Part shown: piece by piece, positions 1 through 55,548 of the stretch
Numbering within the stretch: the stretch's first letter is position 1
Layout: each line of letters opens with the position of its first letter
UHGV virus genome: UHGV-0016284
Length of the DNA stretch: 55,548 nt
Direction: 5' to 3' (one strand)
From: a virus
Notes under the pieces: generated by a model
The model's input: the letters and a program-made list of their open reading frames with translations, nothing else
What the model was told of the DNA's origin: nothing
Database searches by the model: none
Position numbers and translations under genes: made by a program

Positions 1-192
1 AAGGTAAAAACATCAGCAGAAAGCGCACAAGATAACACCATAACGAACAACACCTACACCAGCGTTGAAAACAAGGTGGGACAAGGCAGGCCAGTGCCAA
101 TCCTGTTGGGTGAGATGAAAATAGGTTCAAACGTCGGATCGTTAGGCATAGACACAAGCAATAACAAAGACGCCTTAGACGTTGTAAGTTAA
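1..192 (+). CDS. 3' end of upstream tail gene, probably tail assembly protein I-like (partial, start outside window)
   Basis: Open frame from base 1 to TAA at 190-192 (ends ...GEMKIGSNVGSLGIDTSNNKDALDVVS), immediately upstream of the J-like gene as in lambda I-J synteny. Confidence 0.35.
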   Translation, partial: KVKTSAESAQDNTITNNTYTSVENKVGQGRPVPILLGEMKIGSNVGSLGIDTSNNKDALDVVS

Positions 193-205
193 CAGGAGAA
201 AAGCC

Positions 206-3200
206 ATGAGTAGCGGCGGCGGCAAAGCCAAAACACCAACATTATTGAACGATAACCTGTATCATAAACAGTTTTATCGTGTCTTAGATATTCTCAGTGA
301 GGGGCCGATATATGGTCCGGTAAACCAGAAAGCACCACTGAATAACGTGATGCTTAATGACACGCCTGTTACTGACGCAAACGGGAATACATCAATACCG
401 GGGATTAGTATAGCCTGGCGAAACGGCACGGCTGACCAATCGCCGATTAATGGTTTTAATGCCATTGAGTCAACCGTTATTGTCAACGCAAAGGTAACTC
501 ACGACACGCCAATAATCAGGACTGTTTCAGATCCAAACGTTACCCGCGTCAGGTTGAATCTTGGTGTTGACGCTCTCGTTCAGTCAGACGACAAGGGCAA
601 TCAATACAATACATCCGTTATGTTGATGGTTGACGTTAAACCGTCATTATCTTCTACGTGGTCGCTGATTAAAGATATACACATTGGCCCCGGTAAACAA
701 AGCGGTGAATATCTGGAAGCTCACATTATCAAAGCGCCGGATGAAAAACCGTTTGATATTCGCATTCGTCGCATAACAGCAGACAGCAACAGCGATCTAT
801 TGCAGAATGATACGCGGTGGAGTAGTTACAGCGAAATCATAGACGATAATCTGTCTTATCCTCATACCGCTGTAGCTGGCGCTGTGATTGACCATGACCA
901 GTACACTGATACACCTACCCGCACCTATCATCTTCGCGGCCTGATTGTTGACGTGCCTGATAACTACAACACAGAAACGCGCACATATTCGGGCTTATGG
1001 CTTGGTGGATTCAAAAAAGCGTACACCAATAACCCTGCGTGGATTTTCCGGTATCTGGTTAAAAACGAGCGCTTCGGGCTTGCTCGACATGCTGGTTACA
1101 TTGATGTTGATGATGGCGCTTTGTACGTGCTCTCCCAATACTGCGATCAGTTGGTTGATGATGGCTATGGTGGCCTTGAACCTCGCATGACGCTTAACGC
1201 TTACATTACGGAGCAAATGAGCGCCCGCGACCTACTGGATAACATTGCAGGTATGTTCCGTGGTATCGCGTTATGGGACGGGCAACGCCTTACCGTGATG
1301 ATTGATGCGCCACAGGATCCAATTGCCACCATCACAAACGCAAGCGTCGTTGATGGCGCGTTTACTCGCTCAAGTCTTCCGCTTGCAGAGTGTTACAACG
1401 CCGTGATCGTATCATGGACTGACCCGGAAAACGGCTGGGAGCAATCAAAGGAATACGTGGCAGATGATGAACTAATCGCCCGCGATGGTTATAACGAAAC
1501 CACGTTGGAGGCGTTCGGGTGCACGTCACGCGGGCAAGCTCACCGCGCTGGGAAGTGGCTGATAGAAACAGCAAAACGCGAGCCGTCTAAATTCACGTTT
1601 AAAATGGCCCGTGACGCAATTCACTTCACCCCTGGTGATATTATCGAGATACTCGACAATAACCGTGCTGGCGCCCGTCTAGGCGGTCGTATCGTAGCAA
1701 ACAATGGCAGGGTTATCACTGTCGATAAGGTTGATTCTGAATATATCACCCCTGGCGACACCATTAGCCTGCTTGATAGTGACGGCAAATTTAAAAAACA
1801 CCAGATCACCGGAGTTAGCGGAAACAAAATTACCCTTGCATCCGCCCCGGCATGGATTCGTAACGGTACTGTATTTGCTGTATCAACTAACGCAGCAAAA
1901 CCCGTATTGTGTCGAATCACCAGCGTAGCAGAAACAGAAAATAACAGCGTGTACACCATAGAGGCTGCACAGCATGATCCGCACAAACAGGCTGTAGTAG
2001 ATAATGGCGCAATCTTTGAGGTCAACAACGATACGCTTAATCACTTCCGCGTGCCGAACATTGAAAACCTGAAGGTGTTAAACATTGGATCTGAAACAGT
2101 TCAATGCCGCGCAACATGGGAAACACTGACGACAACTCATCGCCTGACCTTTGAAATCCGCGTATACAATTCAGCGGGGGCCGTAGTTAAAAGCTACGAA
2201 ACTACTAATTACAGTTATGATTTTTATGGCATTGATGCGGGAACCTACTCATTAGGCATCCGTGGCAGAAATGACACGGGCATGAAGGGTGCTGAAAGCA
2301 TTGTGGATCTGGTTATTGGCGCACCGGCGGCCCCGGTAGGAGTTAACTGGGTTCCTGGTGTATTTCAGGCTACAGTTTACCCGATCAGCAGAACAACGCT
2401 TACCACTGACACTAGTTATGAGTTTTATTACTCAGGTGAAACACAAATCACCGATCCGGCATCAGTAACCACTAAGGCACAATATACCGGGCGTGGTCAT
2501 CAGTGGACGTTTGGCGGCATGAACACGGGCCACACCTATTACGTTTACGTGCGCACACGCAATGCTTTTGGCGTGTCTGACTTTGTAGAGGCGTCAGGTA
2601 AGCCGACAGAGAATTTTGATGAAATCAGTGACTACGTGATGAAGGATGTCATGGGGTCGGAACAGTTCAAGGAAATGATTGGTGACATCAAAGATCTAGG
2701 CGACCGCACCGATGTTATCGAAGGTGTTGCGGAAGAACTGAAAACAGCTACTGACAACCTCAAAACTACAACTGATAACCTTACGAACGTAACTGACGAT
2801 TTAAGGACTGAAACAGACAACCTTACCAGCATAACCGACGATTTGAGGACCGAAACAGACAACCTTACTAACATAACTGAAGATTTAAGGACTGACACTG
2901 ACAACCTGATCACAGAAACGGGAACAATAAAAGCTGACACCGATACACTTAAAAAAGAAACGGAAGATCTTTACAAAAAAGTTAAGGAAAACGCCGATGA
3001 TATTGGTCAGCATGAGTCCAGGATTGACCTATTAGAAGTGTCCAGCGAAAAAGTTGGCAGCGAACTGGCGCAAGCAAAAGCAAGCCTGCAAAACGCGTCA
3101 TTGGCGCTTATCAACAACTCGCTTGCACAGACAAACACGCGCGTTACCCTTACCGCCCAGTACAAAAAAGGCAGAACGGAAACGAAAGCGGAAATTGACC

Positions 3201-5950
3201 GTATTGACAACGTTATCGCTGAAGAGAAAAAAGCAACGGCTGAATCACTGAAAACCATCACGGCAGAAATGAACACGATGGATTCCAACCTTAAAGGTCA
3301 GATCTCCAGTGTGGAACGCGCAGTGGCTGACGAGGCTAGTGCCCGCGCTGAAGCTATTAACGGTGTGAACGCCTCAATAAGCAATCTCGACAAGAAAACG
3401 GATGCCAGCGTCAATAGGCTTGATCAGGCTATTGCAGATGAAACGAACGCCCGCACACAGGCGGTCAGTGACGTTAACGCAAGTATCTCGGTACTTGATA
3501 AGAAAACTGACGCCAGCGTTAAACGCCTGGATCAGGCAATCGCTGACGAAACCAGCGCAAGAACCGAAGCTATCAGTGGCGTGAACGCATCAATTTCAAC
3601 GCTTGATAGCAAAGTGGAAAGCAATATAACGCGCATAGATAAAGCTATTGCAGATGAAACGCAGGCGCGTACAGACGCAATAAGCGGCGTCAAAGCGAGC
3701 ATTAACACACTTGAAGGCAACACCAATTCAGAAGTTAAACGTCTGGATCAGGCAATCGCTGACGAGGCCAGTGCCCGCACACAGGCGGTCAGTGATGTAA
3801 AAGCATCAGTAAGCAACCTTGAAAGCAAAACTGACGCCAGCGTTAAACGCCTGGATAAAGCTATTGCAGACGAAACAAGCGCACGCAGCGAAGCTATTAG
3901 TGGGGTAAATGCCTCAGTATCAGCGCTCGACAAGAAAACCGATTCAAGCATAAGCCGCCTTGATAAAGCCATTGCGGATGAAACAAGCGCGAGAACCGAA
4001 GCCATCAACGGTGTGAATGCGTCAATTTCCACACTCGACGGCAAGGTTACAAGTAACGTTAGCCGCCTTGATAAAGCGATTGCAGACGAAACTAAGGCAC
4101 GCACTGACGCCATCAGCAGCGTTAATGCAAGTATCAGTACGCTTGAAAGCAACACTGAATCAGAAGTAAGTAGACTCGACCAGGCAATCGCTGACGAGGC
4201 CAGTGCCCGCGCACAGGCCGTTAGCGGCGTGAAGGCATCAATAGACAGCCTTGATAAGAAAACAGATGCCAGCGTTTCCCGCCTTGACAAAGCAATATCA
4301 GACGAAACGAAGGCAAGAAGCGACGCAATAACAGAGGTTAAAGCAGACTTAACAACGCTTGAGAACAGCACAAACGCCAGCGTTAAGCGTCTTGATCAGG
4401 CAATTGCCGATGAATCAAGCGCCCGCGCTCAGGCAATATCAGGCCTCAGCGCAAATCTTGGCACTGTTGAAAATAATGTTGGCAAAAACAGCGACGAAAT
4501 AAATCAGGCAAAAGCAAGCCTGCAAAACGCATCTATTGCACTTATCAATAACTCAATCGCTCAAACCAACACGCGTGTTACTCTTTCAGCCCAATACAAG
4601 AAAGGAATCAGAGAAACCAACGCGAAAATTGACCGTATTGACAACGTTATCGCTGAAGAGAAAAAAGCAACGGCTGAAGCCATTAGCGGTGTAAACGCAT
4701 CGATCACTAATCTTGATAAGAAGACTGAAGCAAGCGTAAACCGTCTTGATCAGGCAATTGCTGACGAAACAAGCGCCAGAGGACAAGCTATCAGCGAAGT
4801 TAGCGCAAGTGTCAGCACGCTTGATAATAAAGTGACAAGCAACGTCACCAGGATGGACAAAGCCATCGCCGACGAAAAAAAAGCACGCGCGGACGCAATA
4901 AGCGGCCTTAGCGCATCGCTTACCAGTACGATCAACTCAAAAGTATCTGAAGTGTCGACGGCGCTCTCTACGCATGAGGAATCAAGCGCGGAAAAATTTA
5001 GCCAGATCTCAGCGTCTTTCGAATCAGTAAACTCAAGTATTACAGAATGGTCGCAGACAATGGCTACGGCAGACGAGGCGTTGTCAACGAAAATTGATCA
5101 GCTAACAGTGACCGTTAACGGGAACAAGACGGCAATAGAGACGACATCTAAAGCGTTAACCGACTTTAGGGGTAATGTTGATGCGACATATTCAATCAAG
5201 CTCGCCACAGATAGCAATGGCGTAAAATACGCTACAGGTATGTCGCTTGGCCTTACTGGTGACGGCACTAACTTTCAGTCGCAGTGTATTTTCCTTGTTG
5301 ATCGCTTTATGTTAATGACGGCGGCAAACGGCGCATATACATCGCCCTTCTATGTCACTAACGGCGCAATGTATGTGAAAGAGGCATTTATTAAGGATGC
5401 ATCAATAGGGACAGCTAAAATTGCAGATGCCTCCATTACTATGGCTAAAATTGTCAATGAAATTAAATCAGCAAACTTCGTCCCCGGTTCCAATGGTTGG
5501 AGGATAACACAAAGCGGCGCATCAGAATTTAACAACGTTGTTGTAAGGGGTGAAATACATGCAGACAGCGGCAAGTTTACCGGTTCACTTGAGGCGAAAA
5601 CCTTTATCGGTGATGTTGCAAACATGTACACAGGTTCTGACGTTAGCACGTTAAGGGATGGTGAACTAGAAAAAGTAATAACATACAATGACACATCTGA
5701 CGCAGCGCATAGCCGACATATCTGCGTTATGGCTAACGTTAAGGGTTTTGGTGGTTGCACAATAACAATTGGCGGTTCATCAAAAGGTTTAGCACTGGAT
5801 GGCACGGAGCGCCTTGTTATGCATTCAGCAGCAGTAACCAGCAGGGGCGTTACAGTTAAAATTAAGGTATCTGCTCAAAATGACAAGGGGGCTTATATAA
5901 ATTCGCCGACAGTCATAGTGTCGCGCGGTTCTGGTTCATTCTCAGGATAA
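206..5950 (+). CDS. J: host-specificity / central tail fibre protein, lambda J-like, with inserted coiled-coil repeat stalk
   Basis: N-terminal ~800 aa align by eye with lambda J (TPTLLNDNLYHKQFYRVLDILSEGPIYGPV; FDIRIRRITADSNSDLLQNDTRWSSYSEIID; YCDQLVDDGYGGLEPRMTLNAY; FGCTSRGQAHRAGKWLIET). C-terminal ~350 aa also J-like. Between them lies a ~650-aa Ala/Asp/Glu-rich repeat region absent from lambda J. Confidence 0.9.
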   Translation: MSSGGGKAKTPTLLNDNLYHKQFYRVLDILSEGPIYGPVNQKAPLNNVMLNDTPVTDANGNTSIPGISIAWRNGTADQSPINGFNAIESTVIVNAKVTHDTPIIRTVSDPNVTRVRLNLGVDALVQSDDKGNQYNTSVMLMVDVKPSLSSTWSLIKDIHIGPGKQSGEYLEAHIIKAPDEKPFDIRIRRITADSNSDLLQNDTRWSSYSEIIDDNLSYPHTAVAGAVIDHDQYTDTPTRTYHLRGLIVDVPDNYNTETRTYSGLWLGGFKKAYTNNPAWIFRYLVKNERFGLARHAGYIDVDDGALYVLSQYCDQLVDDGYGGLEPRMTLNAYITEQMSARDLLDNIAGMFRGIALWDGQRLTVMIDAPQDPIATITNASVVDGAFTRSSLPLAECYNAVIVSWTDPENGWEQSKEYVADDELIARDGYNETTLEAFGCTSRGQAHRAGKWLIETAKREPSKFTFKMARDAIHFTPGDIIEILDNNRAGARLGGRIVANNGRVITVDKVDSEYITPGDTISLLDSDGKFKKHQITGVSGNKITLASAPAWIRNGTVFAVSTNAAKPVLCRITSVAETENNSVYTIEAAQHDPHKQAVVDNGAIFEVNNDTLNHFRVPNIENLKVLNIGSETVQCRATWETLTTTHRLTFEIRVYNSAGAVVKSYETTNYSYDFYGIDAGTYSLGIRGRNDTGMKGAESIVDLVIGAPAAPVGVNWVPGVFQATVYPISRTTLTTDTSYEFYYSGETQITDPASVTTKAQYTGRGHQWTFGGMNTGHTYYVYVRTRNAFGVSDFVEASGKPTENFDEISDYVMKDVMGSEQFKEMIGDIKDLGDRTDVIEGVAEELKTATDNLKTTTDNLTNVTDDLRTETDNLTSITDDLRTETDNLTNITEDLRTDTDNLITETGTIKADTDTLKKETEDLYKKVKENADDIGQHESRIDLLEVSSEKVGSELAQAKASLQNASLALINNSLAQTNTRVTLTAQYKKGRTETKAEIDRIDNVIAEEKKATAESLKTITAEMNTMDSNLKGQISSVERAVADEASARAEAINGVNASISNLDKKTDASVNRLDQAIADETNARTQAVSDVNASISVLDKKTDASVKRLDQAIADETSARTEAISGVNASISTLDSKVESNITRIDKAIADETQARTDAISGVKASINTLEGNTNSEVKRLDQAIADEASARTQAVSDVKASVSNLESKTDASVKRLDKAIADETSARSEAISGVNASVSALDKKTDSSISRLDKAIADETSARTEAINGVNASISTLDGKVTSNVSRLDKAIADETKARTDAISSVNASISTLESNTESEVSRLDQAIADEASARAQAVSGVKASIDSLDKKTDASVSRLDKAISDETKARSDAITEVKADLTTLENSTNASVKRLDQAIADESSARAQAISGLSANLGTVENNVGKNSDEINQAKASLQNASIALINNSIAQTNTRVTLSAQYKKGIRETNAKIDRIDNVIAEEKKATAEAISGVNASITNLDKKTEASVNRLDQAIADETSARGQAISEVSASVSTLDNKVTSNVTRMDKAIADEKKARADAISGLSASLTSTINSKVSEVSTALSTHEESSAEKFSQISASFESVNSSITEWSQTMATADEALSTKIDQLTVTVNGNKTAIETTSKALTDFRGNVDATYSIKLATDSNGVKYATGMSLGLTGDGTNFQSQCIFLVDRFMLMTAANGAYTSPFYVTNGAMYVKEAFIKDASIGTAKIADASITMAKIVNEIKSANFVPGSNGWRITQSGASEFNNVVVRGEIHADSGKFTGSLEAKTFIGDVANMYTGSDVSTLRDGELEKVITYNDTSDAAHSRHICVMANVKGFGGCTITIGGSSKGLALDGTERLVMHSAAVTSRGVTVKIKVSAQNDKGAYINSPTVIVSRGSGSFSG
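2745..2960 (+). repeat. short in-frame tandem repeats (about 30-40 bp units) encoding TDNLxxTTDDLRTETDNLT motifs inside J
   Basis: Repeated peptide TDDLRTETDNLT(S/N)IT and matching DNA units (actgacgatttaaggactgaaacagacaacctta...). The antisense ORF 2632..2940 is a by-product of this periodicity. Confidence 0.6.
3194..3244 (+). repeat. 51-bp perfect direct repeat, copy 1 (within J)
   Basis: attgaccgtattgacaacgttatcgctgaagagaaaaaagcaacggctgaa is identical at 3194-3244 and 4628-4678. An additional 23-bp identity (gcaaaagcaagcctgcaaaacgc) lies about 125 bp upstream of each copy. Confidence 0.85.
3310..4450 (+). repeat. about ten tandem 108-bp (36-aa) coding repeats, predicted coiled-coil stalk of J
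   Basis: Protein repeat KKTDASV(K/N)RLDQAIADETSARTEAISGVNASIS(T/N)LD recurs about 10 times with a 36-residue period. Boundaries approximate. Confidence 0.8.
4628..4678 (+). repeat. 51-bp perfect direct repeat, copy 2 (within J)
   Basis: Identical to 3194-3244. Spacing 1434 bp = 478 codons, so recombination between copies would be in frame. Confidence 0.85.
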
Positions 5951-5984: not shown

Positions 5985-6230
5985 GTAGTTAGCTACACAG
6001 TTAGAAGGGCTACCGATGCGGCGCATGTTGTGATCGAGTTCATGACACCATTGACCAGTATAAGGCAGTTTTTCAGTGTCATAGACAAGATGACCTTCAC
6101 CATCATAGACAACATCTTGTGGAATTACTCCGCTATTCGGCAGGTTATGCAATGCGGCCTCTTTGTCAACAGCGCAACCAGTAAGAGCTACAGCCGCAGC
6201 GAACAAAACCACTTTGAACATGTTTTTCAT
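5982..6230 (-). CDS. small lipoprotein (signal peptide plus lipobox LTGC), antisense moron next to J
   Basis: MKNMFKVVLFAAAVALTGC...: hydrophobic signal peptide with L-T-G-C lipobox; 82 aa with two further Cys; AGGA ribosome-binding site 8 nt upstream. Confidence 0.65.
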   Translation of the reverse strand: MKNMFKVVLFAAAVALTGCAVDKEAALHNLPNSGVIPQDVVYDGEGHLVYDTEKLPYTGQWCHELDHNMRRIGSPSNCVANY

Positions 6231-21163: not shown

Positions 21164-21380
21164 TCTTGTGTCTCCTATGGTTAGAGTGAACGCGCGGGCG
21201 GGCATCCCATTAGCATTAGATAGCAGTGACTGACCGCTCAACAGATCCCGCCGTTGCGTGATATTTGTTTTTCGCTTCGCAGCGACACCGGATTTTTAAA
21301 GAGCTTAAGTGGTTGGCCTTTTGTGCTTTCCGTTATCTTTTTTCTTGCATCATTGCAACTATGGCCTTACCTTGTTTGCA

Positions 21381-22312: not shown

Positions 22313-22349
22313 GCTCTTTAACAATCTGGTCAGCCGCTGGAAGTGCGGC
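22313..22349 (+). promoter_or_regulatory. nut-like site: boxA-like sequence plus boxB-like hairpin
   Basis: GCTCTTTAA (22313-22321) resembles boxA (CGCTCTTA); hairpin GCCGC-tggaagt-GCGGC at 22333-22349 resembles boxB. Confidence 0.35.
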
Positions 22350-26101: not shown

Positions 26102-26104
26102 CAT

Positions 26105-26120
26105 TGTGATTGCGATCACA
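26105..26120. promoter_or_regulatory. perfect CRP-consensus-type palindrome TGTGA-N6-TCACA
   Basis: tgtgattgcgatcaca at 26105-26120 in a 100-bp intergenic gap; further TGTGA half-sites just downstream (tgtgatcgca, ttttgtgaact). Confidence 0.4.
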
Positions 26121-29286: not shown

Positions 29287-29359
29287 ACAAAATGGCGTCA
29301 TTGCGTGATATGGATCACATAATGGCGCTTTTCGCCTTGTTCTGGTGTATCCATTTTGT
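29287..29359. promoter_or_regulatory. nested inverted repeats (TTTACAAAATGG ... GTGATatggATCAC ... CCATTTTGTA)
   Basis: ACAAAATGG at 29287-29295 and its reverse complement at 29351-29359 flank the palindrome gtgatatggatcac; intergenic between the HNH gene and the next ORFs. Confidence 0.3.
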
Positions 29360-48489: not shown

Positions 48490-49170
48490 ATGATCCATGT
48501 TCGTACAGGACAATTTGCGGCTGTGGTGAACGGTAAGCGCTATGAATTTAATCCTTGCTTTGCTGCGATGGCTAAAATCGGCAACGATAGTGAGCTTGTC
48601 GAATATTTCGCACTTATCCACGGCAGCAAATACCCTTCACGATTACCTACAGATCCAGACCTCCGCAATCGCATTATGGCGCGGTGTTATGGTGAGATAG
48701 TGCAAACGTCTATACACATCCTGAAATGTTGCTCAGACGACGAAACAGGCCCGTTATTGGGCGAATGCTGGTTTACTCCTTCAGGTAAATTAAGGTTAAG
48801 GCCCGGAATAATGCCAGTTGATGATGTTATTACGCTGGCGCAACACTGCATGTACCACGGTTTAATTGGTGACGGCCCTGAAGAGGTCGCAAGCGAGAGG
48901 CGGGAAGGTGAATACAAACCAACGTTCGACATACTGGAGTTTGTTTATTCTGCCGTTGCTCACCTGGGGTTATCAGAATCAGAAGCGTGGAATATGACAA
49001 TGACCGGATATAGGGCCGCTGTGCGTGCTAAAACGCCGCCAGAAGCAAGAAACAAACAAAAACGACCAGATGTATTACTGGATAAAAAGGCTTATGACGA
49101 TGGAATGAGGGAGGCTATGGAGATACTAAAAAGAATGGAAAATAGCGAGCAAGAAAAAGCCCGGGATTAG
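48490..49170 (+). CDS. tail assembly chaperone
   Basis: Position between major tail and tape measure; AGGGTGA ribosome-binding site before ATG 48490. No frameshift site could be assessed. Confidence 0.55.
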   Translation: MIHVRTGQFAAVVNGKRYEFNPCFAAMAKIGNDSELVEYFALIHGSKYPSRLPTDPDLRNRIMARCYGEIVQTSIHILKCCSDDETGPLLGECWFTPSGKLRLRPGIMPVDDVITLAQHCMYHGLIGDGPEEVASERREGEYKPTFDILEFVYSAVAHLGLSESEAWNMTMTGYRAAVRAKTPPEARNKQKRPDVLLDKKAYDDGMREAMEILKRMENSEQEKARD

Positions 49171-49191
49171 CCGGGCCTCTAAAATTCTGTG

Positions 49192-49551
49192 TTAGTTGAA
49201 ATACGCATCAACTCTGTGGGCCACGTTTACACCATAAGACTCGCCATCATTAAACGCATTTAGTGACGCTTTATTGTTTTTTGCCGCCTCTTTTAATCCA
49301 TTGTACTTGCTATTAAGATCTTTCCATTCAGCGGTTTTTTCTAATACTGGCTTCATTGCGTAATGAATACAGCCAACGTTAAATGGCATTTCCAGATCAC
49401 CATTACCGTCACCATGCTTTATATCGTACAACTGAGCATTATGCGCACATTCACGAAGTATGTATTTTGCGGACGGAGAGTGCTCAGCATTAGCATTAAG
49501 CGCAACTCCTGCAAGTACCGCCACGATTAAGATTTTTGCCAGACTTTTCAT
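49192..49551 (-). CDS. secreted/periplasmic protein (Sec signal peptide), antisense moron
   Basis: MKSLAKILIVAVLAGVALNANA then EHSP...: classic signal peptide with AxA cleavage site; mature ~97 aa with 2 Cys; GGGGTGA ribosome-binding site. Confidence 0.6.
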   Translation of the reverse strand: MKSLAKILIVAVLAGVALNANAEHSPSAKYILRECAHNAQLYDIKHGDGNGDLEMPFNVGCIHYAMKPVLEKTAEWKDLNSKYNGLKEAAKNNKASLNAFNDGESYGVNVAHRVDAYFN

Positions 49552-49563
49552 ATTTCACCCCGC

Positions 49564-49653
49564 TTAGTTTTTGTTTTTCAGCGCTTTTAACATTTGCTCG
49601 ATAAAGTCAGCATAGCGCTCATGTTCGTTGGGGTGGTAGTTTACGTTTTTCAT
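49564..49653 (-). CDS. small protein (29 aa) upstream of the secreted protein in the same antisense moron
   Basis: MKNVNYHPNEHERYADFIEQMLKALKNKN; AAGAGGA ribosome-binding site; 12 nt before the next start. Confidence 0.35.
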   Translation of the reverse strand: MKNVNYHPNEHERYADFIEQMLKALKNKN

Positions 49654-49729
49654 TTTCTTATCCTCTTTTGCTTCCTCCGGTCAATCCGGCCTTTTAAGTC
49701 CCTTCGCTCTATCCCTTTCCTTTGGCTTC

Positions 49730-49800
49730 TTTATACAAAATGTGTTCACTGAAGTAAATCCATTTTGTATAAAATAGAGGCATAGATCACATTTTGTATG
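49730..49800. promoter_or_regulatory. inverted/direct repeat cluster and candidate minus-strand promoter upstream of the moron (and of the tape measure gene)
   Basis: ATACAAAATGT (49733-49743), CCATTTTGTAT (49760-49770), ACATTTTGTAT (49788-49798). Minus-strand TTTACT-17-TATAAA promoter (complement of 49753-49758 and 49730-49735). Confidence 0.4.
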
Positions 49801-49810
49801 AGGTTAAATC

Positions 49811-52800
49811 ATGTCAACAAATTTAGGCACAATTTATTACGAGGTTGATGCAAAAACGGGTCAGCTTCTGACTGTTCAGCGCGAGGTAGATCGCGCAACT
49901 GGCAAAATGGAAAAGGATTTGGAGCGCGTGGATAGTGCCGCCACTCAGGCAAGTAAGTCACTGTCAAAGCTATCCTCGATTGCCAGTGCCCTGGGTGCTG
50001 CAATGGCAGCAAAAAAAATCATTGAGTATGCAAACGCCTGGCAGGAGGTGAATAACAGGCTAATCAATAGCGTTCGTGCTGGTGAATCACTGGCAGACGT
50101 TAATCAGCGTGTATTTCAGATCGCGCAAAATTCACGAAGCGATCTTGATGCTACAGCAGATCTTTACGGTAAATTAGAGCGCTCGACGCGCGACGCTGGT
50201 TTATCGACGAAAGCACTTGGTGATATGGTTGAAACCATTAACAAAACATTCCGCATTTCTGGCGCTTCTGCCGCTGAAGCAGAAGGCGGGATCCGTCAGT
50301 TGGGTCAATCCCTCGCCAAAGGTGTTTTGAATGGCGATGAATTTAACTCCGTTACAGAAAACGCCACCAGGCTGTCAGAGGGTTTGGCTAAATCACTGGG
50401 CGTATCGTCAGCGGAAATGCGCAAGATGGCAGCAGAAGGGAAAATCACCCGTGAAGCTATCATTAAAGCCCTTAAGGAAATGAAAGCGGAGGTTGATGCT
50501 GAGTTTTCTAAACTCACCCCAACTATGCAGGAGGCTTTCACTGTTGCAGGCAACAACGCAGCTAAATTTTTCGGCAGCAATTCGTCAATTATGGGCGGGA
50601 TTGGTGCTTTTAATTCGGCAGTTGTAACCCTGTCAGAAAACCTTAACGAAATAGCTACTGCATTTATTGGCATTGCCACTGTGATGGGTGGCAGAGTGGT
50701 AAATAAATTCGTAGCTGCAACAGCAGAGGTATTAACTAACGCTCAGGCGACCAGGGCACAAACGGCAGCGGCACGGCAGGCCGCTCAGAGTGAATTGGCG
50801 CTAGCTAACGCTCAGGTGGTATCAGCACGGCAATCAGTAGCGGCGGCGGCGGCAAGGTTGAGAGAGGCGCAGGCTTATGCTGCGGCAAATGCCGGAACAA
50901 AATTCGAAGTTCAGACACTGAAAGAATTGGCTGTAGCCAAAGCACAGAACACAGCGGCATCAAACGCCCTTACTGCGGCAGAGCAGCGCCTTGCTGCGGC
51001 CCACACTGCGGCGGCGGCTAATGCAGGGCTACTAAAAACAGCGTTTAGCGCTACTCTGGGTGCGATTGGTGGTATCCCTGGCGCGTTAATGCTTGCTGTT
51101 TACGGGTTGACAGCATATGTAGATCACGTAGATCAAACGGCAGAGGCAAACCGCAACCTTGCCGATTCAGTGGACGTTAGTACCGAATCACTGGAACGAA
51201 TGAGTAAGGCGGCTAAGCTGGCTGGTGCAGATAAACTACAAATATCAATGGGTCAGTTAGAGGAAGACGTTGCCAGTCTCAACAAACAGATTGACCAGGA
51301 CACGCAGGCGCTGGAACTGAATAAACAGGCACTGGAGAAAGCAGAGGAGGGGTCACGCGCTTACGCCAACCTATCGAAAGCTAATCAGGAAATCACAGCC
51401 CGCCTGACCAGGGAAGAGGCGCAGCGTGAGGATATTCTCGACCGCCTTAATCAAATGCAGCGCAAATATATTCTGCTTATGCAGGATACAGATCCGCTAA
51501 TGAAGACCGTTGCCACTTCATTGGGGTTGGTAGCGGATGCATACGGAAGAATCACCACAGAAGCAGAACGCGCAGCAGCAGCAACGCAACACGCTTCAGC
51601 AGCACTTAACGCAGATCAGCAAGAATTAATGAATCTGGCAAACCGCCGCCTGGAGCTGGCAAAACTCGACTCCAAAACAGCCAGCAGGGAAAAGGCGATT
51701 GATGGGTTTAAGCGTGAGGCTGAGAAAGCAAACCTGACCGGGGAAGCGTATGAAAAATACATGGCTACAATGACCAAAGCATACGACACCGAGCAGAAAC
51801 GCGCCGAAGCTGAAAGAAAGGCCAGTCATGGGAAAAAAACTGGCGAAAGCGAGGAGAAAAAACATCTAAAAGAGGCTGAACGCCTGCGCAAAGAGCTTGA
51901 GAAACGGGGCCAGAATGTTGCAGATAAATACAATGTAGAAGCCGCCGCGCAACGGAAATTAAAAGAGGATCAGGATGCGCTAAATGCAGCATTAAAAAGC
52001 GGCAAAATAAGCGCGGAACAATATAATAAGGCATGGAAAGAATTAATTGGAACCGAGGAACAACGCAAACGTCAGGCTAGCTGGGATAATCTGGTAAACA
52101 AAGAGCTACAACTACGCGGGCAACTAGACCCAATTCAGCAGGCGATGAATGAATGGGCGGTTCGCAAGCAGATGCTCACAGATTTAGGCGCTACAGAGCA
52201 ATATATGAGGGAGCAAGAAAAAGCGCATGAGAGGGAAATGCTATCACTTCAGTGGGAGAGGTATAAGGCGCAGTCATTGACCAACCAACTGTTAGGCGAT
52301 GCTGTTGATGCAATGAGCGGATCCGCAACTAACGCGCTTGTCGGCCTGATTAACGGTACTCAAAATTGGCAACAGGCGATCGCTAACATTGGCAATACAA
52401 TCCTTTCCTCCGTGATTGGTACGATTGTTCAAATGGGTACTGAGTGGGTCAAGCAGCAATTGATTGGTGATACAGCAAGAACTATGGCAACAGCTAAAGC
52501 AATGGGCGAGGCGGTGGCGTTAAGTTCTGCATGGTCAACCCCAGCCTACCTGGCAAGCGTGGCAACAATGGGCGGCGCAGCGACGGCGGGGTCAGCGGCG
52601 ATAGCAACCGGATTGGCTGGAGCAAAAGCGCTTGGCCTGGCTGGCGCTCGTTATAACGGCGGTGCGGTTAATGGTGGTAGCCTGTATCGCGTAGGGGAAC
52701 ACGGTAAGCCAGAGATCTTCCAATCTCGAAACGGTGAACAGTATATGATTCCTGGTGACAACGGCAGGGTAATACCAAATCGCGACATTGGTGGTGCGGG

Positions 52801-52966
52801 TGGTGGTAACGTTAGTATAAACGCACCGATTAGCGTTTACCCACAAAATGGATGGAGTGATGAGGACGCCAAAAAACTACAGCAGGATATGGAAAAGATC
52901 TGCATGGGCCTGATACACCGCGAATCATCCAGACCGGGCGGAATGCTGCAACCGCGCCGCAAATAA
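49811..52966 (+). CDS. tail tape measure protein
   Basis: 1051 aa, long Ala/Gln/Glu-rich coiled coil, Gly-rich C-terminal region; canonical position. Confidence 0.85.
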   Translation: MSTNLGTIYYEVDAKTGQLLTVQREVDRATGKMEKDLERVDSAATQASKSLSKLSSIASALGAAMAAKKIIEYANAWQEVNNRLINSVRAGESLADVNQRVFQIAQNSRSDLDATADLYGKLERSTRDAGLSTKALGDMVETINKTFRISGASAAEAEGGIRQLGQSLAKGVLNGDEFNSVTENATRLSEGLAKSLGVSSAEMRKMAAEGKITREAIIKALKEMKAEVDAEFSKLTPTMQEAFTVAGNNAAKFFGSNSSIMGGIGAFNSAVVTLSENLNEIATAFIGIATVMGGRVVNKFVAATAEVLTNAQATRAQTAAARQAAQSELALANAQVVSARQSVAAAAARLREAQAYAAANAGTKFEVQTLKELAVAKAQNTAASNALTAAEQRLAAAHTAAAANAGLLKTAFSATLGAIGGIPGALMLAVYGLTAYVDHVDQTAEANRNLADSVDVSTESLERMSKAAKLAGADKLQISMGQLEEDVASLNKQIDQDTQALELNKQALEKAEEGSRAYANLSKANQEITARLTREEAQREDILDRLNQMQRKYILLMQDTDPLMKTVATSLGLVADAYGRITTEAERAAAATQHASAALNADQQELMNLANRRLELAKLDSKTASREKAIDGFKREAEKANLTGEAYEKYMATMTKAYDTEQKRAEAERKASHGKKTGESEEKKHLKEAERLRKELEKRGQNVADKYNVEAAAQRKLKEDQDALNAALKSGKISAEQYNKAWKELIGTEEQRKRQASWDNLVNKELQLRGQLDPIQQAMNEWAVRKQMLTDLGATEQYMREQEKAHEREMLSLQWERYKAQSLTNQLLGDAVDAMSGSATNALVGLINGTQNWQQAIANIGNTILSSVIGTIVQMGTEWVKQQLIGDTARTMATAKAMGEAVALSSAWSTPAYLASVATMGGAATAGSAAIATGLAGAKALGLAGARYNGGAVNGGSLYRVGEHGKPEIFQSRNGEQYMIPGDNGRVIPNRDIGGAGGGNVSINAPISVYPQNGWSDEDAKKLQQDMEKICMGLIHRESSRPGGMLQPRRK

Positions 52967-52972
52967 TCAAAA

Positions 52973-53000
52973 CCCCGGCGCAATGCCGGGGTTATTTTTA
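52973..53000. terminator. rho-independent terminator after tape measure (probably bidirectional)
   Basis: Hairpin ccccggc-gcaat-gccgggg followed by ttattttta; same stem as the terminator at 46148. Confidence 0.7.
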
Positions 53001-53177
53001 TTCAATTTCATCATTTTTAAATTCGCCGTTTGCATAAAGCTGTAATGCGCTTATCAGTTCGTCAGCTTGCTTTTTGTCTATTACAATCATCTCGCAGTCG
53101 CTAACGATCCATAATCTTCCATCATCTTCAACACTAAGATCAATCCTTCTACATTCTTCAGTCTCGTGAATAATCAT
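52998..53177 (-). CDS. small protein (59 aa), antisense cassette gene 4
   Basis: MIIHETEECRRIDLSVEDDGRLWIVSDCEMIVIDKKQADELISALQLYANGEFKNDEIE; GAAGG ribosome-binding site. Confidence 0.4.
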   Translation of the reverse strand: MIIHETEECRRIDLSVEDDGRLWIVSDCEMIVIDKKQADELISALQLYANGEFKNDEIE

Positions 53178-53215
53178 TATAAACCTTCATCATGTTATTG
53201 ATTTCGTGAATAAAT

Positions 53216-53386
53216 TTACTCAAATCTTGTATATCCTCTTTCAATTTTCCCTCCGTGTACACTTCTGGCAAATACCGCGTCAGTATACCTGAAAAATGGG
53301 CATGTATATGTATCCCCTTTGCTATCCATATATTTTAGCACCCACGCTATGCGTTTTACGTTGCTTTTATTTGCCGGGTTTTTCAT
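53216..53386 (-). CDS. small protein (56 aa), antisense cassette gene 3
   Basis: MKNPANKSNVKRIAWVLKYMDSKGDTYTCPFFRYTDAVFARSVHGGKIERGYTRFE; GGAGGA ribosome-binding site before ATG 53386. Confidence 0.4.
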   Translation of the reverse strand: MKNPANKSNVKRIAWVLKYMDSKGDTYTCPFFRYTDAVFARSVHGGKIERGYTRFE

Positions 53387-53417
53387 TTTGTTTTCCTCCG
53401 CAACATTCAAATCCGTG

Positions 53418-53672
53418 TCACTTGTGAGCGCCTTTCACCCCACAGTGCCTGTTATATTCCAGGTGGTCAATAATTAACCACATCTTTAAATCTTCGCTGA
53501 ATAACCGCCAATCGGGGTTAATATCAAATTTATAACCGTAGCCATCGCGTAATTTTTTGGGGGTGGCCTCTTTTCTCAGGAAAGCATTTAATAAAGCCTT
53601 GCCCTTTTTGATGATCCGGTCCTGTGCGTTTTTCTGTGCTTTCAGATTTTTACCAATCGCTACCAATTTCAT
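53418..53672 (-). CDS. small protein (84 aa) with weak RelE/YafQ-like toxin resemblance, antisense cassette gene 2
   Basis: ...KKLRDGYGYKFDINPDWRLFSEDLKMWLIIDHLEYNRH: PDW-containing segment resembles YafQ (KGYRDAHVEPDWILIYKL). Unverified. Confidence 0.4.
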   Translation of the reverse strand: MKLVAIGKNLKAQKNAQDRIIKKGKALLNAFLRKEATPKKLRDGYGYKFDINPDWRLFSEDLKMWLIIDHLEYNRHCGVKGAHK

Positions 53673-53690
53673 AACACACCCCACAATCCA

Positions 53691-53846
53691 TTAGTTGACC
53701 ACTTTCAGGAAGAAATCACGGTATTCATCTTCTTTTGCATTCATCATGAATTGACCGTATTTGAATGCGTCATCAAAGCCTTTAACTATCGCCACTTCCA
53801 CCTGTTCGAATGCGTTGTTCAGCATCACAACCACATAGCGTTCCAT
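53691..53846 (-). CDS. small protein (51 aa), antisense cassette gene 1
   Basis: MERYVVVMLNNAFEQVEVAIVKGFDDAFKYGQFMMNAKEDEYRDFFLKVVN; GGGGGGAGGGG ribosome-binding site before ATG 53846. Confidence 0.4.
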   Translation of the reverse strand: MERYVVVMLNNAFEQVEVAIVKGFDDAFKYGQFMMNAKEDEYRDFFLKVVN

Positions 53847-54019
53847 ATTGCCCCTCCCCCCTTGTCGGTACTGCTTTTTCTTCTTGCTTACTATATACAT
53901 CTTGTCACGCCTTATGTGAAGCCATTTTGTAAACTGGTTATAATTCTTGTGATGAATTTCTCATTTTTCGCGTAGAAGCGCGTAAAGATGTATGCAATAT
54001 GTAACTTATAGGGGGAATC

Positions 54020-54373
54020 ATGCCAGAAGTTTTCAGATGGACGCCGCAAAGAAGCTACAGCGTGACCAGGGAACCAAATGTGTCTGTCGTTAAACTTGGT
54101 GATGGTTATGAACAGCGCCAGGCGAAAGGGATTAACACGTTGCTTGATAGTTATACCCTGGTTTTCAAAGGCAGTAGCGCGGGATGTGGTGATGGTGGAA
54201 ACGTGGCGATCCAGGCTGAAGCATTTTTGAGGGCGCGCGGCGCTGTCGATGCTTTCTACTGGACGCCTTCGATGGATGGGGTGCAAAGGCTTTTCGTTTG
54301 CCGTAGCTGGAGCATGACCAAAGACGGGCCTGTGTACACGCTAAACGCAACGTTTGAACAAGTTGTTGGCTAA
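54020..54373 (+). CDS. M: minor tail protein M (lambda M-like)
   Basis: Aligns by eye with lambda M along its length (FRWTPQ.....V.....V.KL.GDGYEQRQAKGIN..L.SYTLVF........EAFL...G....FYWTP.......F.C..WS.........ATFEQVV). Confidence 0.8.
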   Translation: MPEVFRWTPQRSYSVTREPNVSVVKLGDGYEQRQAKGINTLLDSYTLVFKGSSAGCGDGGNVAIQAEAFLRARGAVDAFYWTPSMDGVQRLFVCRSWSMTKDGPVYTLNATFEQVVG

Positions 54374-54570
54374 TGGGGGTTGTTATGTACGGGACTTGTG
54401 TAGTTGACAAAACTTACGCTTTTACATTGTTTGACGACTATGAGATCAACGACCTTACTGTAAAAGCTGACAACGGCGATATATGGTATCTTCACGACGT
54501 TGGTGATGGGTACGTGGGGTGTAGATCCCGGGAAGGGAAGGAGGTTTTATTTTTGGTTGATGGCGTATAA
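54373..54570 (+). CDS. small hypothetical protein (61-65 aa) after M
   Basis: ORF overlapping the M stop; likelier start is ATG 54385 (GGGGG ribosome-binding site). Not L-like. Confidence 0.4.
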   Translation: MGVVMYGTCVVDKTYAFTLFDDYEINDLTVKADNGDIWYLHDVGDGYVGCRSREGKEVLFLVDGV

Positions 54571-54575
54571 ACACG

Positions 54576-54604
54576 ACCCCGCGCGAAGCGGGGTTATTAT
54601 TATT
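54576..54604. terminator. bidirectional hairpin terminator
   Basis: ccccgc-gcgaa-gcgggg followed by ttattattatt; the stem is the reverse complement of the one at 5958. Confidence 0.6.
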
Positions 54605-54716
54605 CCATTTCCATTAATGCTATATTTTCTGCTATCGTTTTCCAGTCCAGATCTACAGCATGAACGCCAAATACTATCAATCCCATTATTATTAGCGCCA
54701 AAACTTCTATTTTCAT
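54600..54716 (-). CDS. hydrophobic minipeptide (38 aa)
   Basis: MKIEVLALIIMGLIVFGVHAVDLDWKTIAENIALMEME; GGTGA ribosome-binding site. Confidence 0.35.
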   Translation of the reverse strand: MKIEVLALIIMGLIVFGVHAVDLDWKTIAENIALMEME

Positions 54717-54726
54717 AATCTGTCAC

Positions 54727-54975
54727 CTATAAGTTATCACGCAGATAATTAACGCCCTTATCAGTGACGAATGAATGGTTAACCTGGTTTTCATCCGTCA
54801 TGATGATGAATAACTTTTCCTGTAGGTATTTCGCTTTCGGGTACAGCGTTAAACAGACCTGGTACAGTATCCCGCGCTCAATCAGCAAATCAATAAATTC
54901 GTGCTCATGATAACCGACGAGGCGGGCGGCCTGTTTCAACGTGTACACATAGTCACCGTGATTGCTCCGCCCCAT
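54727..54975 (-). CDS. hypothetical protein (82 aa), possible DNA-binding
   Basis: YTLKQAARLVGYHEHEFIDLLIERGIL looks HTH-like. Tentative. Confidence 0.4.
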   Translation of the reverse strand: MGRSNHGDYVYTLKQAARLVGYHEHEFIDLLIERGILYQVCLTLYPKAKYLQEKLFIIMTDENQVNHSFVTDKGVNYLRDNL

Positions 54976-54984
54976 ATTACCGCC

Positions 54985-55335
54985 TTATTTATCGAAGGCT
55001 GAAAGATTATCAATACAGAAGTCTTTAGCCGCTTTTTCGTATTCGCGTTTTGCTTCTGGATCGTCAGCCGGGAAACCTTTTGCGTGTATTTCACCAGGGC
55101 AAGACTGATCCATAGAGTCTGCAAATTCAACATTGACGTTAAAGTTAATATCTTTCGGGTTCATCTCTTCCACCTTATCCGGTACTTGGACCGGAGTAAT
55201 GTCAAATTCACGAGCGCTAGACCAACAGCGCAGTAATTCACGACCTTCATCACGCGCGGCGTTGTATGTATCGAATAACCCCATGCGCTCCCATTCGCAT
55301 TTATCAGTGAACACTTCTAAGCTGTATTTTTGCAT
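54985..55335 (-). CDS. hypothetical protein (116 aa)
   Basis: Antisense ORF overlapping the upstream gene end. Confidence 0.45.
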   Translation of the reverse strand: MQKYSLEVFTDKCEWERMGLFDTYNAARDEGRELLRCWSSAREFDITPVQVPDKVEEMNPKDINFNVNVEFADSMDQSCPGEIHAKGFPADDPEAKREYEKAAKDFCIDNLSAFDK

Positions 55336-55507
55336 TTTTTGTTATAACCTCCCATTTGGCAGGTTCGATCCTGTATCCCAAAACGCGGTCATCTTCAGCA
55401 AGTAAAAGCGCGTCAGTTAGTGCCTCGCCTTCGTCTTTATACAGAGCTACAGTCATTTCCCTGCCGCCTGACAGGAATACCGTCAACCTCCACACCTTAT
55501 CAGCCAT
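55304..55507 (-). CDS. hypothetical protein (67 aa)
   Basis: GGAGGTG ribosome-binding site before ATG 55507 (track start 55525); the cassette may continue beyond the window end. Confidence 0.4.
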   Translation of the reverse strand: MADKVWRLTVFLSGGREMTVALYKDEGEALTDALLLAEDDRVLGYRIEPAKWEVITKNAKIQLRSVH

Positions 55508-55548
55508 CTCACACCTCCGCGCCATTTTGTTAACCCTGCTTCCTTTTG

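Follow-up and report, generated by a model that had tools for sequence, protein, structure and literature searches.

We examined the junction between the tail genes M and L of a virus genome, UHGV-0016284, represented by a 55,548 nt stretch of DNA (hereafter the window, meaning the whole stretch that was analysed). A block of four opposite-strand genes, here called the cassette, lies at this junction. By sequence comparison the phage is assigned to the mEp021 group (“mEpimmI”) of temperate coliphages, with E. coli as its host. The original prediction had described a second antisense cassette after M and a 61-amino-acid (aa) open reading frame (ORF), with a bidirectional terminator and minus-strand genes of 38, 82, 116 and 67 aa, and we found every one of these features in place.

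M (54020..54373, +) is the last tail gene before the cassette; it matched PF05939 (Phage_min_tail, E=1.9e-29) and had a ratio of non-synonymous to synonymous substitution rates (dN/dS) of 0.065. It is followed by orf61 (54385..54570, +), encoding an acidic protein (isoelectric point (pI) 4.2; phrog_3249, E=1.5e-22; dN/dS 0.10) that is 61 aa long according to the gene caller on an identical contig and 65 aa when read from the first ATG (54373). This gene follows M in 47/47 related loci and is probably co-transcribed with it. The next feature is a bidirectional intrinsic terminator (54575..54595, both strands), a G+C-rich hairpin that scored as terminator-like either way, with folding energies of −16.1 kcal/mol on the plus strand (z −3.9) and −16.3 kcal/mol on the minus strand (z −2.5). 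The mEp021 record annotates its counterpart as a two-way terminator, and the hairpin serves both the M-orf61 unit and the antisense cassette.

The cassette itself is read from the minus strand. Its first gene, p67 (55304..55507), encodes 67 aa, or 73 aa from an upstream ATG at 55525, and is followed by p116 (54985..55335), whose 116-aa product is a very acidic orphan protein, and by p82 (54727..54975), the conserved core gene, which encodes a stand-alone KilAC/ANT domain of 82 aa. The last and variable gene, p38 (54600..54716), encodes a hydrophobic 38-aa peptide with a single transmembrane segment (grand average of hydropathy 1.12). In all, ~1.06 kb of opposite-strand genes lies between M and L-K-I-J. 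The coding region is complete within the window, as are 41 nt of the 5′ leader of the cassette mRNA (55508..55548, −), in which there is one copy of a 9-mer, CCATTTTGT (+ strand, 55522-55530). A Shine-Dalgarno-like sequence precedes each of the four ORFs, including GGAGGTG 5 nt ahead of the p67 ATG and AGGTG upstream of p38, and dN/dS was 0.14 for p38, 0.11 for p82, 0.21 for p116 and 0.26 for p67 (25-40 unique homologous alleles, n=25 for p38), the tail genes M, L and K having values of 0.04-0.09. Because all four have Shine-Dalgarno sites and are under purifying selection, they are real genes and not chance ORFs. No Rfam RNA family was found in the cassette region.

The M–L junction across the phage family

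The window opens with the last 192 nt of an I-like gene, directly followed by J (206-5950), as had been read from the sequence. L and K are outside the window, and the original prediction took them either to lie beyond it or to have been replaced. An exact 50-nt match occurred in no viral or genome contig and in just one metagenome contig of 7.2 kb, which stops short of the window edge. Sequence past both window ends was supplied by a metagenome scaffold in ENA, L050, found via an exact-protein match, which was 100% identical to window 49001-55548 (6,548 nt) and window 1-3980 (3,980 nt) and joined the two ends through 1,807 bp absent from the window. This gap holds a 129-bp intergenic region, which is the cassette promoter region, then L (234 aa, PF05100), starting ~130 bp past the window edge, K (243 aa, NlpC/P60) and most of I (176 aa). 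Since the scaffold carries both L and K between window end and window start, the two genes have been neither lost nor replaced. The window corresponds to a circularly permuted genome of ~57.4 kb minus one excised piece, and the apparent loss of L and K is an artefact of the cut site. The idea that recently inserted foreign DNA has displaced L and K here, or taken their place, draws on the lack of both genes within the window; it can practically be dismissed, given that the 1,807 bp of a scaffold identical to the window ends contain L, K and I, that the G+C content of the cassette equals that of the genome and that every relative carries the cassette. All six lambda-type tail-tip genes are present in L050, in the order tape measure protein (TMP; H), M, L, K, I, J. 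They are not contiguous on one strand: antisense cassettes separate a chaperone-like gene from TMP, TMP from M and M-orf61 from L, and another follows J.

We found the cassette in the M–L slot of 47/47 related loci, with L next in the 46 whose contig reaches the junction, and the order M, orf61, p38 (where present), p82, p116, p67, L, K was kept wherever the contig extended far enough. The same layout occurred in mEp021, mEp010, an E. coli prophage, 44 viral contigs and 34/5,426 complete E. coli genomes; in the first three, L, K, I and J come straight after the cassette. The region was 88-92% identical to the phages mEp010, mEp044, mEp515, mEp013, mEp554 and mEp021; these make up the published mEpimmI group of temperate coliphages, whose pangenome, when analysed manually over 48 genomes, counts a KilAC-like gene as core (PMC11893012). 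The interruption of the tail module is therefore an ancestral, fixed feature of the phage family, because the cassette occupies the same slot in all relatives and its KilAC-like gene is core. The description of the block as foreign did not hold, with its G+C content of 0.442 against 0.460 for the genome, its constant position and its core gene. That the interruption is unusual is true relative to lambda, where M and L share one base, and to Yersinia phage P400, where the two genes are contiguous; inside this family it is the norm.

Orthologues in the same order and position, with 82-99% protein identity, are gp71-74 of mEp021 and gp107-111 of mEp010, and the two records label them hypothetical or putative antirepressor. 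Here, unlike in those phages, p67 has a 16-aa C-terminal extension overlapping p116, and in mEp021 an additional gene, gp72, separates p82 from p116. Neither the antisense cassettes nor their promoters or function are discussed in the mEpimmI paper (PMC11893012). The ipe gene, responsible for the haemolytic phenotype of mEp021 lysogens, was considered as a cassette gene and set aside: it is gp29, in the early-right operon.

Within the slot, gene content varies, and some relatives have extra small genes, several of them a 77-81-aa gene between p116 and p82. In one locus, L025, an HNH homing-endonuclease gene (PF13392, E=1.6e-15) lies between p82 and p116 (~3507-3992, with M and L in + orientation), and mEp021 has another HNH gene between I and J, pointing to mobile-element traffic in the tail-tip module. 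The closest outgroup, the Salmonella phage SPN3UB (M 65% identical), likewise has an extra plus-strand ORF after M and opposite-strand small genes in the same two slots, gp33 between M and L and gp29 ahead of the tape measure gene; unlike the cassette, gp33 is a single 71-aa gene with no similarity to any cassette protein, and its intergenic region is a different one. The family-wide cassette and this unrelated antisense gene together indicate that the M–L slot is an old accessory-gene site in the lineage.

A cassette that is universal in the family and sits inside the tail-tip module might encode family-specific tail assembly or structural factors. We regard this as very improbable, in view of the opposite strand, the promoter-like site of its own, the terminator insulation, the varying gene content of the slot and the membership of p82 in a regulator/Kil-type family. 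The original prediction had itself left room for a conserved structural or assembly module: the ORFs are indeed conserved, yet the annotation of mEp021, whose virion proteins were mapped by mass spectrometry (PMC11893012), marks M, L and J as virion structural and none of the cassette genes.

The cassette proteins

The 82-aa protein scored 29.2 bits against PF03374 (curated cut-off 25.3) and covered profile positions 23-105 of 108. It belongs to phrog_5689 (E=3.5e-21), and RefSeq calls its orthologues KilAC domain-containing proteins. Across all relatives it was 88-100% identical, and its gene had the highest nucleotide conservation between M and L (93%). The nearest matches outside the group were the C-termini of larger Ant/Rha proteins, at 30-38% identity, and p82 lacks an N-terminal AntA/B, Bro-N, KilA-N or Rha domain; because it aligns to these C-termini, it is a stand-alone KilAC domain and no full antirepressor. 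The AlphaFold2 model of p82 (mean predicted local distance difference test score (pLDDT) 75.6) begins with a beta-helix-helix arrangement and had no significant match in the PDB, the best being winged helix-turn-helix (HTH) domains of the MerR/Xis type (E>=2); a sequence search for a solved relative found none. The earlier description of the protein as HTH-like is thus weakly supported: the match is to KilAC/ANT, and the HTH top hits were not significant. We also found that dS of p82 was just 0.31, compared with 0.57-0.92 in the flanking genes, which may reflect a recent sweep or recombination of the segment, or an extra constraint on its DNA or RNA.

Single KilAC domains are known to act on the host by themselves. 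The isolated KilAC domain of Listeria AriS inhibits the SOS response (PMC9043618), and CreP of Acinetobacter, a stand-alone KilAC protein of 103 aa, is bacteriostatic and causes filamentation (bioRxiv 10.1101/2024.01.05.574328). Inhibition of growth or division, or of the SOS response, upon expression is known for CreP, Phi11 Gp07 and AriS. In p82 the TxKG motif of CreP is present as TDKG (residues 71-74) and is kept in most homologues, K73 being replaced by N in P0060 and P0062, whereas the counterpart of the AKxLxL motif of CreP and P1 KilA is merely approximate (AARLVG). Since isolated KilAC domains elsewhere inhibit SOS or block cell division, p82 is likely a host-directed effector, an extension by analogy in which p82 is related to CreP and to the C-terminal domain of AriS through the Pfam model only.

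The upstream protein p116 (phrog_38567, E=2.7e-44; pI 4.47, charge −11) had 57 homologous clusters, and all of the source-named ones were from E. coli except one metagenome-assembled record named “Bacteriophage sp.”; among 1.84 billion representative proteins there were just 14 matches. Its AlphaFold2 model has a beta-beta-alpha-beta N-domain (residues 1-50, pLDDT ~95) and a region of pLDDT <50 (residues 62-89). At the nucleotide level the C-terminal half was 85-94% conserved and the N-terminal half 61-69%, so the half that is predicted to be disordered is nevertheless highly conserved, and it appears to fold only upon binding. No Pfam, NCBIfam or PADLOC family matched p116. A motif in its C-terminal half, GHAKGxPADDxEAK, weakly matched an OmpA-like motif repeated 4-5-fold in P0068 and P0070 (E 1e-7 and 1e-6); we set this relationship aside as probably a short-motif coincidence in two long proteins.

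The first protein, p67 (phrog_29559, E=6.3e-28), is mildly acidic (charge −1.4) and consists of a ~51-aa core and a 16-aa C-terminal tail that overlaps the start of p116. Profile alignment of p67 with the p116 family by hhalign spanned 48 columns, the whole p116 N-domain (E=2e-5, probability 77%), and homologue P0050 carries that domain in tandem. On these comparisons p67 is a stand-alone copy of the p116 N-domain fold, and the two are paralogous orphan domains. Alleles of p67 were 41-95% identical, with 79% nucleotide conservation (64% for p38), and an unrelated gene takes its place in L044. No Pfam hit was obtained for p67, and no ribbon-helix-helix (Arc/Mnt) protein was found in the cassette; the RefSeq name “transporter” on some p67 orthologues was disregarded, because no family backs it. 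In some relatives p38 is absent or swapped for 49-aa transmembrane peptides. By analogy with known systems, p116 and p67 probably modulate or target p82.

A toxin-antitoxin-like arrangement would give the same proteins another meaning, with p82 as a bacteriostatic toxin and p116 as an antitoxin that acts via its disordered C-half, stabilising the prophage or aborting infections by other phages. CreP is the bacteriostatic toxin of such a module, and p116 lies directly upstream of p82 in the same frame with a 9-nt gap, pairing a protein of pI 4.5 with one that is near neutral. In addition, p82 and the p116 C-half are the two best-conserved pieces of the cassette while the p116 N-half varies, and toxin-binding tails of antitoxins are usually unstructured on their own, as the p116 C-half is predicted to be. 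We nonetheless consider this arrangement improbable: no toxin or antitoxin family of Pfam, PADLOC or NCBIfam matched p116 or p82, the N-domain of p116 has no known DNA-binding fold and varies while the promoter region stays constant, and the 77-81-aa gene of several relatives comes between the two supposed partners.

The promoter region and sister antisense units

Scanning of L050, in which the bases next after the window end are AGTACAATATACATATTGTAAAAATCGCAATCAACCGTTTTGGTATGATTTAGCGTGACAGCGATCACAAAATGACAAGGTGAAAAAATG(L), revealed a predicted sigma-70 promoter on the cassette strand ~35 nt past 55548 (TTGATT-17-TATATT). In the form TTGATn-17-TATATT it was intact in 47/48 loci. A second predicted promoter points towards L on the opposite strand (TTGTTA-18-TACAAT), and its −10 hexamer overlaps that of the cassette promoter. 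The p67-L intergenic region was 89% conserved, above both p67 and p116. It also contains TGTGA-N6-TCACg, with 9/10 core bases of a CRP-type site centred at −62.5 or −63.5 from the assumed start; the arms TGTGA-N6-TCAC were kept in 47/48 loci while the 6-nt spacer varied. The class I activating position of CRP is −61.5, and a reading of the site near −62 as CRP-type is suggestive. Palindromes of the CRP type were also seen in the early-region spacers 26104-26120 and 29304-29319 (TGTGATTGCGATCACA, which is perfect, and cGTGATATGGATCACA), and the exact pattern GTGA-N6-TCACA had 3 matches against 0.39 expected, with host CRP or a phage protein as candidate readers.

The cassette promoter resembles the early PR-like promoter at ~22230, which is followed by a boxA/boxB nut site. 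When promoters were anchored on their hexamers, those of this cassette and of the units headed by inferred promoters at 53930 and 49768 were identical to the PR-like promoter at 36-46/81 nt, compared with 20.6 ± 4.0 matches and a maximum of 40 for 20,000 random 81-mers. An element, ACAAAATGG, adjoins the −35 hexamer in the PR-like and antisense-unit promoters. These similarities suggest that the cassette promoter shares one build with the PR-like promoter and with the other antisense promoters of the tail module. The complement of this element is the 9-mer CCATTTTGT, of which the window has 13 copies (6359, 6388, 15579, 21474, 22230, 29287, 29351, 42259, 46189, 49760, 52843, 53922 and 55522) against 0.8 expected, a number reached in 0/100 shuffles; 8/13 copies lie in regulatory spacers. 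In its other orientation, the 9-mer with TAnAnT makes up a TG plus −10 region before nutL, nutR2, TMP, M and L, which suggests back-to-back promoter pairs at each of these junctions. Sequences of the boxA-type nut class (GCTCTTTAA) were found at 21287-21304, 22313-22330 and ~29385, downstream of the inferred leftward, the PR-like and the second rightward early promoters, in agreement with the three nut sites reported for mEp021. There may also be a short leftward transcript that starts at CCATTTTG-TATACT (22238-22225) and ends at the terminator after the repressor gene.

The paired promoters raise the possibility that the cassette acts in cis: transcription from its promoter would compete with or oppose L-K-I-J and M, which would be off until Q-modified polymerase arrives, and the proteins would be secondary. 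The overlap of the two predicted −10 hexamers on opposite strands, the conservation of the p67-L spacer above the flanking cassette genes, and the CCATTTTG plus TAnAnT found ahead of each plus-strand tail segment that follows an antisense cassette (TMP, M and L) are consistent with such a device. We hold it to be quite improbable, since lambda-type late operons need none and the promoters towards L are predicted only. Moreover, purifying selection acts on each of the four proteins and p82 hardly varies, which argues that the cassette proteins themselves matter.

Other antisense units of the tail module were also observed. The first, cassette 1 (window 52971-53930, between TMP and M), consists of a two-way terminator (52971-52993) followed by four minus-strand genes of 59, 56, 84 and 51 aa. 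Its basic 84-aa protein (pI 9.95) is ParE-like (PF24732, E=3e-11) and is encoded directly behind the acidic 51-aa protein (pI 4.6), a toxin-antitoxin-like pair. With a G+C content of 0.391 cassette 1 is unlike the M–L cassette, and its content varies among relatives, mEp021 having a zinc-ribbon gene there; its inferred promoter is ACAAAATGG-c-TTCACA-17-TATATA (53930-53892). A single antisense gene (49192-49551, −) lies between the DUF6246 chaperone-like gene and TMP, the slot where HK97 keeps its gene 15 moron. Its product, 119 aa long, carries a Sec signal peptide (MKSLAKILIVAVLAGVALNANA|EH) and matched no family, and its inferred promoter is ACAAAATGG-a-TTTACT-17-TATAAA (49730-49768). Between J and the tail-fibre gene there is an antisense lipoprotein gene (5990-6230, −; MKNMFKVVLFAAAVALTGC..., with a lipobox), separated from the fibre gene by a stretch that has two copies of the 9-mer. 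Its counterparts are the Lpp superinfection-exclusion genes, for which exclusion was demonstrated experimentally (PMC11893012). The tape measure protein itself (49811-52966) has 1,051 aa in this phage, as against ~780 aa in both mEp021 and mEp010. Over its C-terminal part it shares just 44-48% identity with around half of the relatives and 57-94% with the rest, and this split marks the tail-length gene as mosaic within the group.

The likeness to PR brings in a reading of the cassette as an early lytic accessory operon. The CI-like repressor, which the window encodes together with a Q antiterminator (PF03589, E=1e-29), would shut the cassette in lysogens; after infection or induction it would fire with PR and supply host-takeover or anti-defence proteins before late transcription overruns it. 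The promoter and initial transcribed region match the PR-like promoter at 41/81 nt, including the ACAAAATGG-type element by the −35, and KilA-type proteins of P1 and Phi11 have been described as lytic-cycle proteins. The strong acidity of p116 and the mild acidity of p67 also fit, as does the diversity of the p116 N-domain and p67 (41-95% identity, dN/dS 0.21-0.26), which is expected in an arms race. We searched for a repressor operator, among palindromes and 434-type patterns, and identified none. An 18-bp palindrome over the −10 (TACAATAT-NN-ATATTGTA) was rejected as an operator: it has no other copy in the genome, where the search gave a single 3-mismatch match (0.5 by chance) at the head of cassette 1, and it is perfect in just 14/48 loci, with the variant arm TAAAAT remaining a good −10 for the L strand. 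Two overlapping −10 elements are the better reading of it. Operators of the 434 type were not enriched in the genome (10 ACAA-N6-TTGW against 5.6 expected, and no ACAA-N8-TTGT), and a search of the immunity region for operator-like repeats gave just the boxA pair of nutL/nutR and a second copy of the PR −35 region. Furthermore, the cassette genes matched no defence or anti-defence model, and the toxin-antitoxin-like pair and secreted protein of the sister units make sense only if expressed from a prophage. An early lytic role is thus a serious candidate, though a rather unlikely one.

Role of the cassette

Considering this evidence as a whole, we think the odds slightly favour the cassette being a self-contained accessory operon of the moron type that is fixed in the mEp021/mEpimmI family and does not serve tail assembly. 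In this scheme, host sigma-70 RNA polymerase would start from the predicted TTGATn-17-TATATT promoter ~35 nt past the window end, with the CRP-type site near −62 at a class I activating position, and transcription of the cassette would end at the 54575-54595 terminator, so that there would be no antisense run into M. During late growth, Q-modified RNA polymerase would pass the terminators, cross the cassette in the opposite sense and reach L-K-I-J, a read-through made plausible by the Q antiterminator encoded in the window; this late sense transcription would silence the cassette by occlusion, and L-K-I-J may also own a back-to-back promoter. The product p82 would act as a host-directed effector, and the acidic p116, with its paralogue p67, would modulate or target it. 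The roles of p82, p116 and p67, drawn from knowledge of their families, form the weakest step of the scheme. We favour expression from the prophage, possibly early in infection too, because the sister cassettes, whose promoters share this build, have functions of the prophage type.

Several points weigh against this interpretation. The cassette occurs in all family members and its G+C content is like that of the rest of the genome, both unlike a classic moron. Its promoter resembles PR, so that repressor control and silence in lysogens could equally apply, and three predicted features, promoter, CRP-like site and transcription start, all fall outside the window. The function of p82 is extrapolated from KilAC domains linked to it through the Pfam model, with its nearest matches outside the group just 30-38% identical. 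Neither p116 nor p67 had a significant fold match or relatives outside the phage group, and no cassette gene had a hit in PADLOC defence models or NCBIfam.

Similar units are the morons of lambdoid phages, such as HK97 gene 15 and lambda bor and lom, which are independent units with a promoter and a terminator between late or tail genes and are dispensable for virion building; the cassette, with its predicted promoter, would be a unit of that sort. The position in the tail operon is like that of the HK97 gp15 moron (PMC3594210). The cassette has its own terminator, as an autonomous unit should, and the bidirectional hairpin insulates it; its antisense neighbours in this phage have typical moron cargo, namely genes for an exclusion lipoprotein, a toxin-like protein and a secreted protein. 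It differs from morons in having four to six genes instead of one, in lying on the opposite strand, in being present in every family member and counted as core, with only some of its genes sporadic, and in a G+C content (0.442) that is not set apart from that of the genome (0.460). A second parallel is immI of P22 (ant, arc and mnt), a regulatory, antirepressor-type cluster that has a promoter of its own, lies within the late structural region of a temperate phage and includes an Ant-family domain. Here, by comparison, the cassette sits between M and L, p82 amounts to the C-terminal KilAC domain (82 aa) without AntA/B, Bro-N, KilA-N or Rha, and instead of an Arc/Mnt ribbon-helix-helix protein there is p67, beta-beta-alpha-beta by homology to the p116 N-domain.

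A bolder proposal, which we regard as speculative and improbable, is that the M–L junction is a nutritionally tuned switch, in which a CRP-activated promoter drives a KilAC effector operon and lies back-to-back or overlapping with a promoter for L-K-I-J. If this were true, the metabolic state of the host would set a prophage module that modulates growth or SOS against readiness for tail-tip synthesis. The divergent promoter design marked by CCATTTTGT would then be reused at every junction of a tail gene and an antisense cassette, splitting the lambda-type late operon into separately controlled segments, and p116 and p67 would be a new partner-domain family of p82.

The cassette is an uncharacterised element of an ordinary accessory-operon type, and its points of interest are the family-wide presence, the near-invariant KilAC gene, the pair of paralogous orphan domains and a conserved promoter design that the early promoter also has. 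It offers a clean illustration of accessory operons that a temperate phage family houses in its tail module while leaving the module intact: the genes lie on the opposite strand, with a terminator on one side and a predicted divergent promoter region on the other, and Q antitermination would override the arrangement late. Should the proposed roles hold, the cassette would provide a minimal 82-aa KilAC protein for dissecting a widespread and poorly understood domain in E. coli, a small and new family of partner domains, comprising p67 and the p116 N-domain, which was found in no named organism except E. coli and its phages, and a candidate CRP-responsive prophage promoter. In a collection from human faeces, mEpimmI phages reportedly equalled lambdoid ones in prevalence (PMC11893012), and because of this prevalence a host-modulating operon common to all mEpimmI phages could matter for the physiology of gut E. 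coli.

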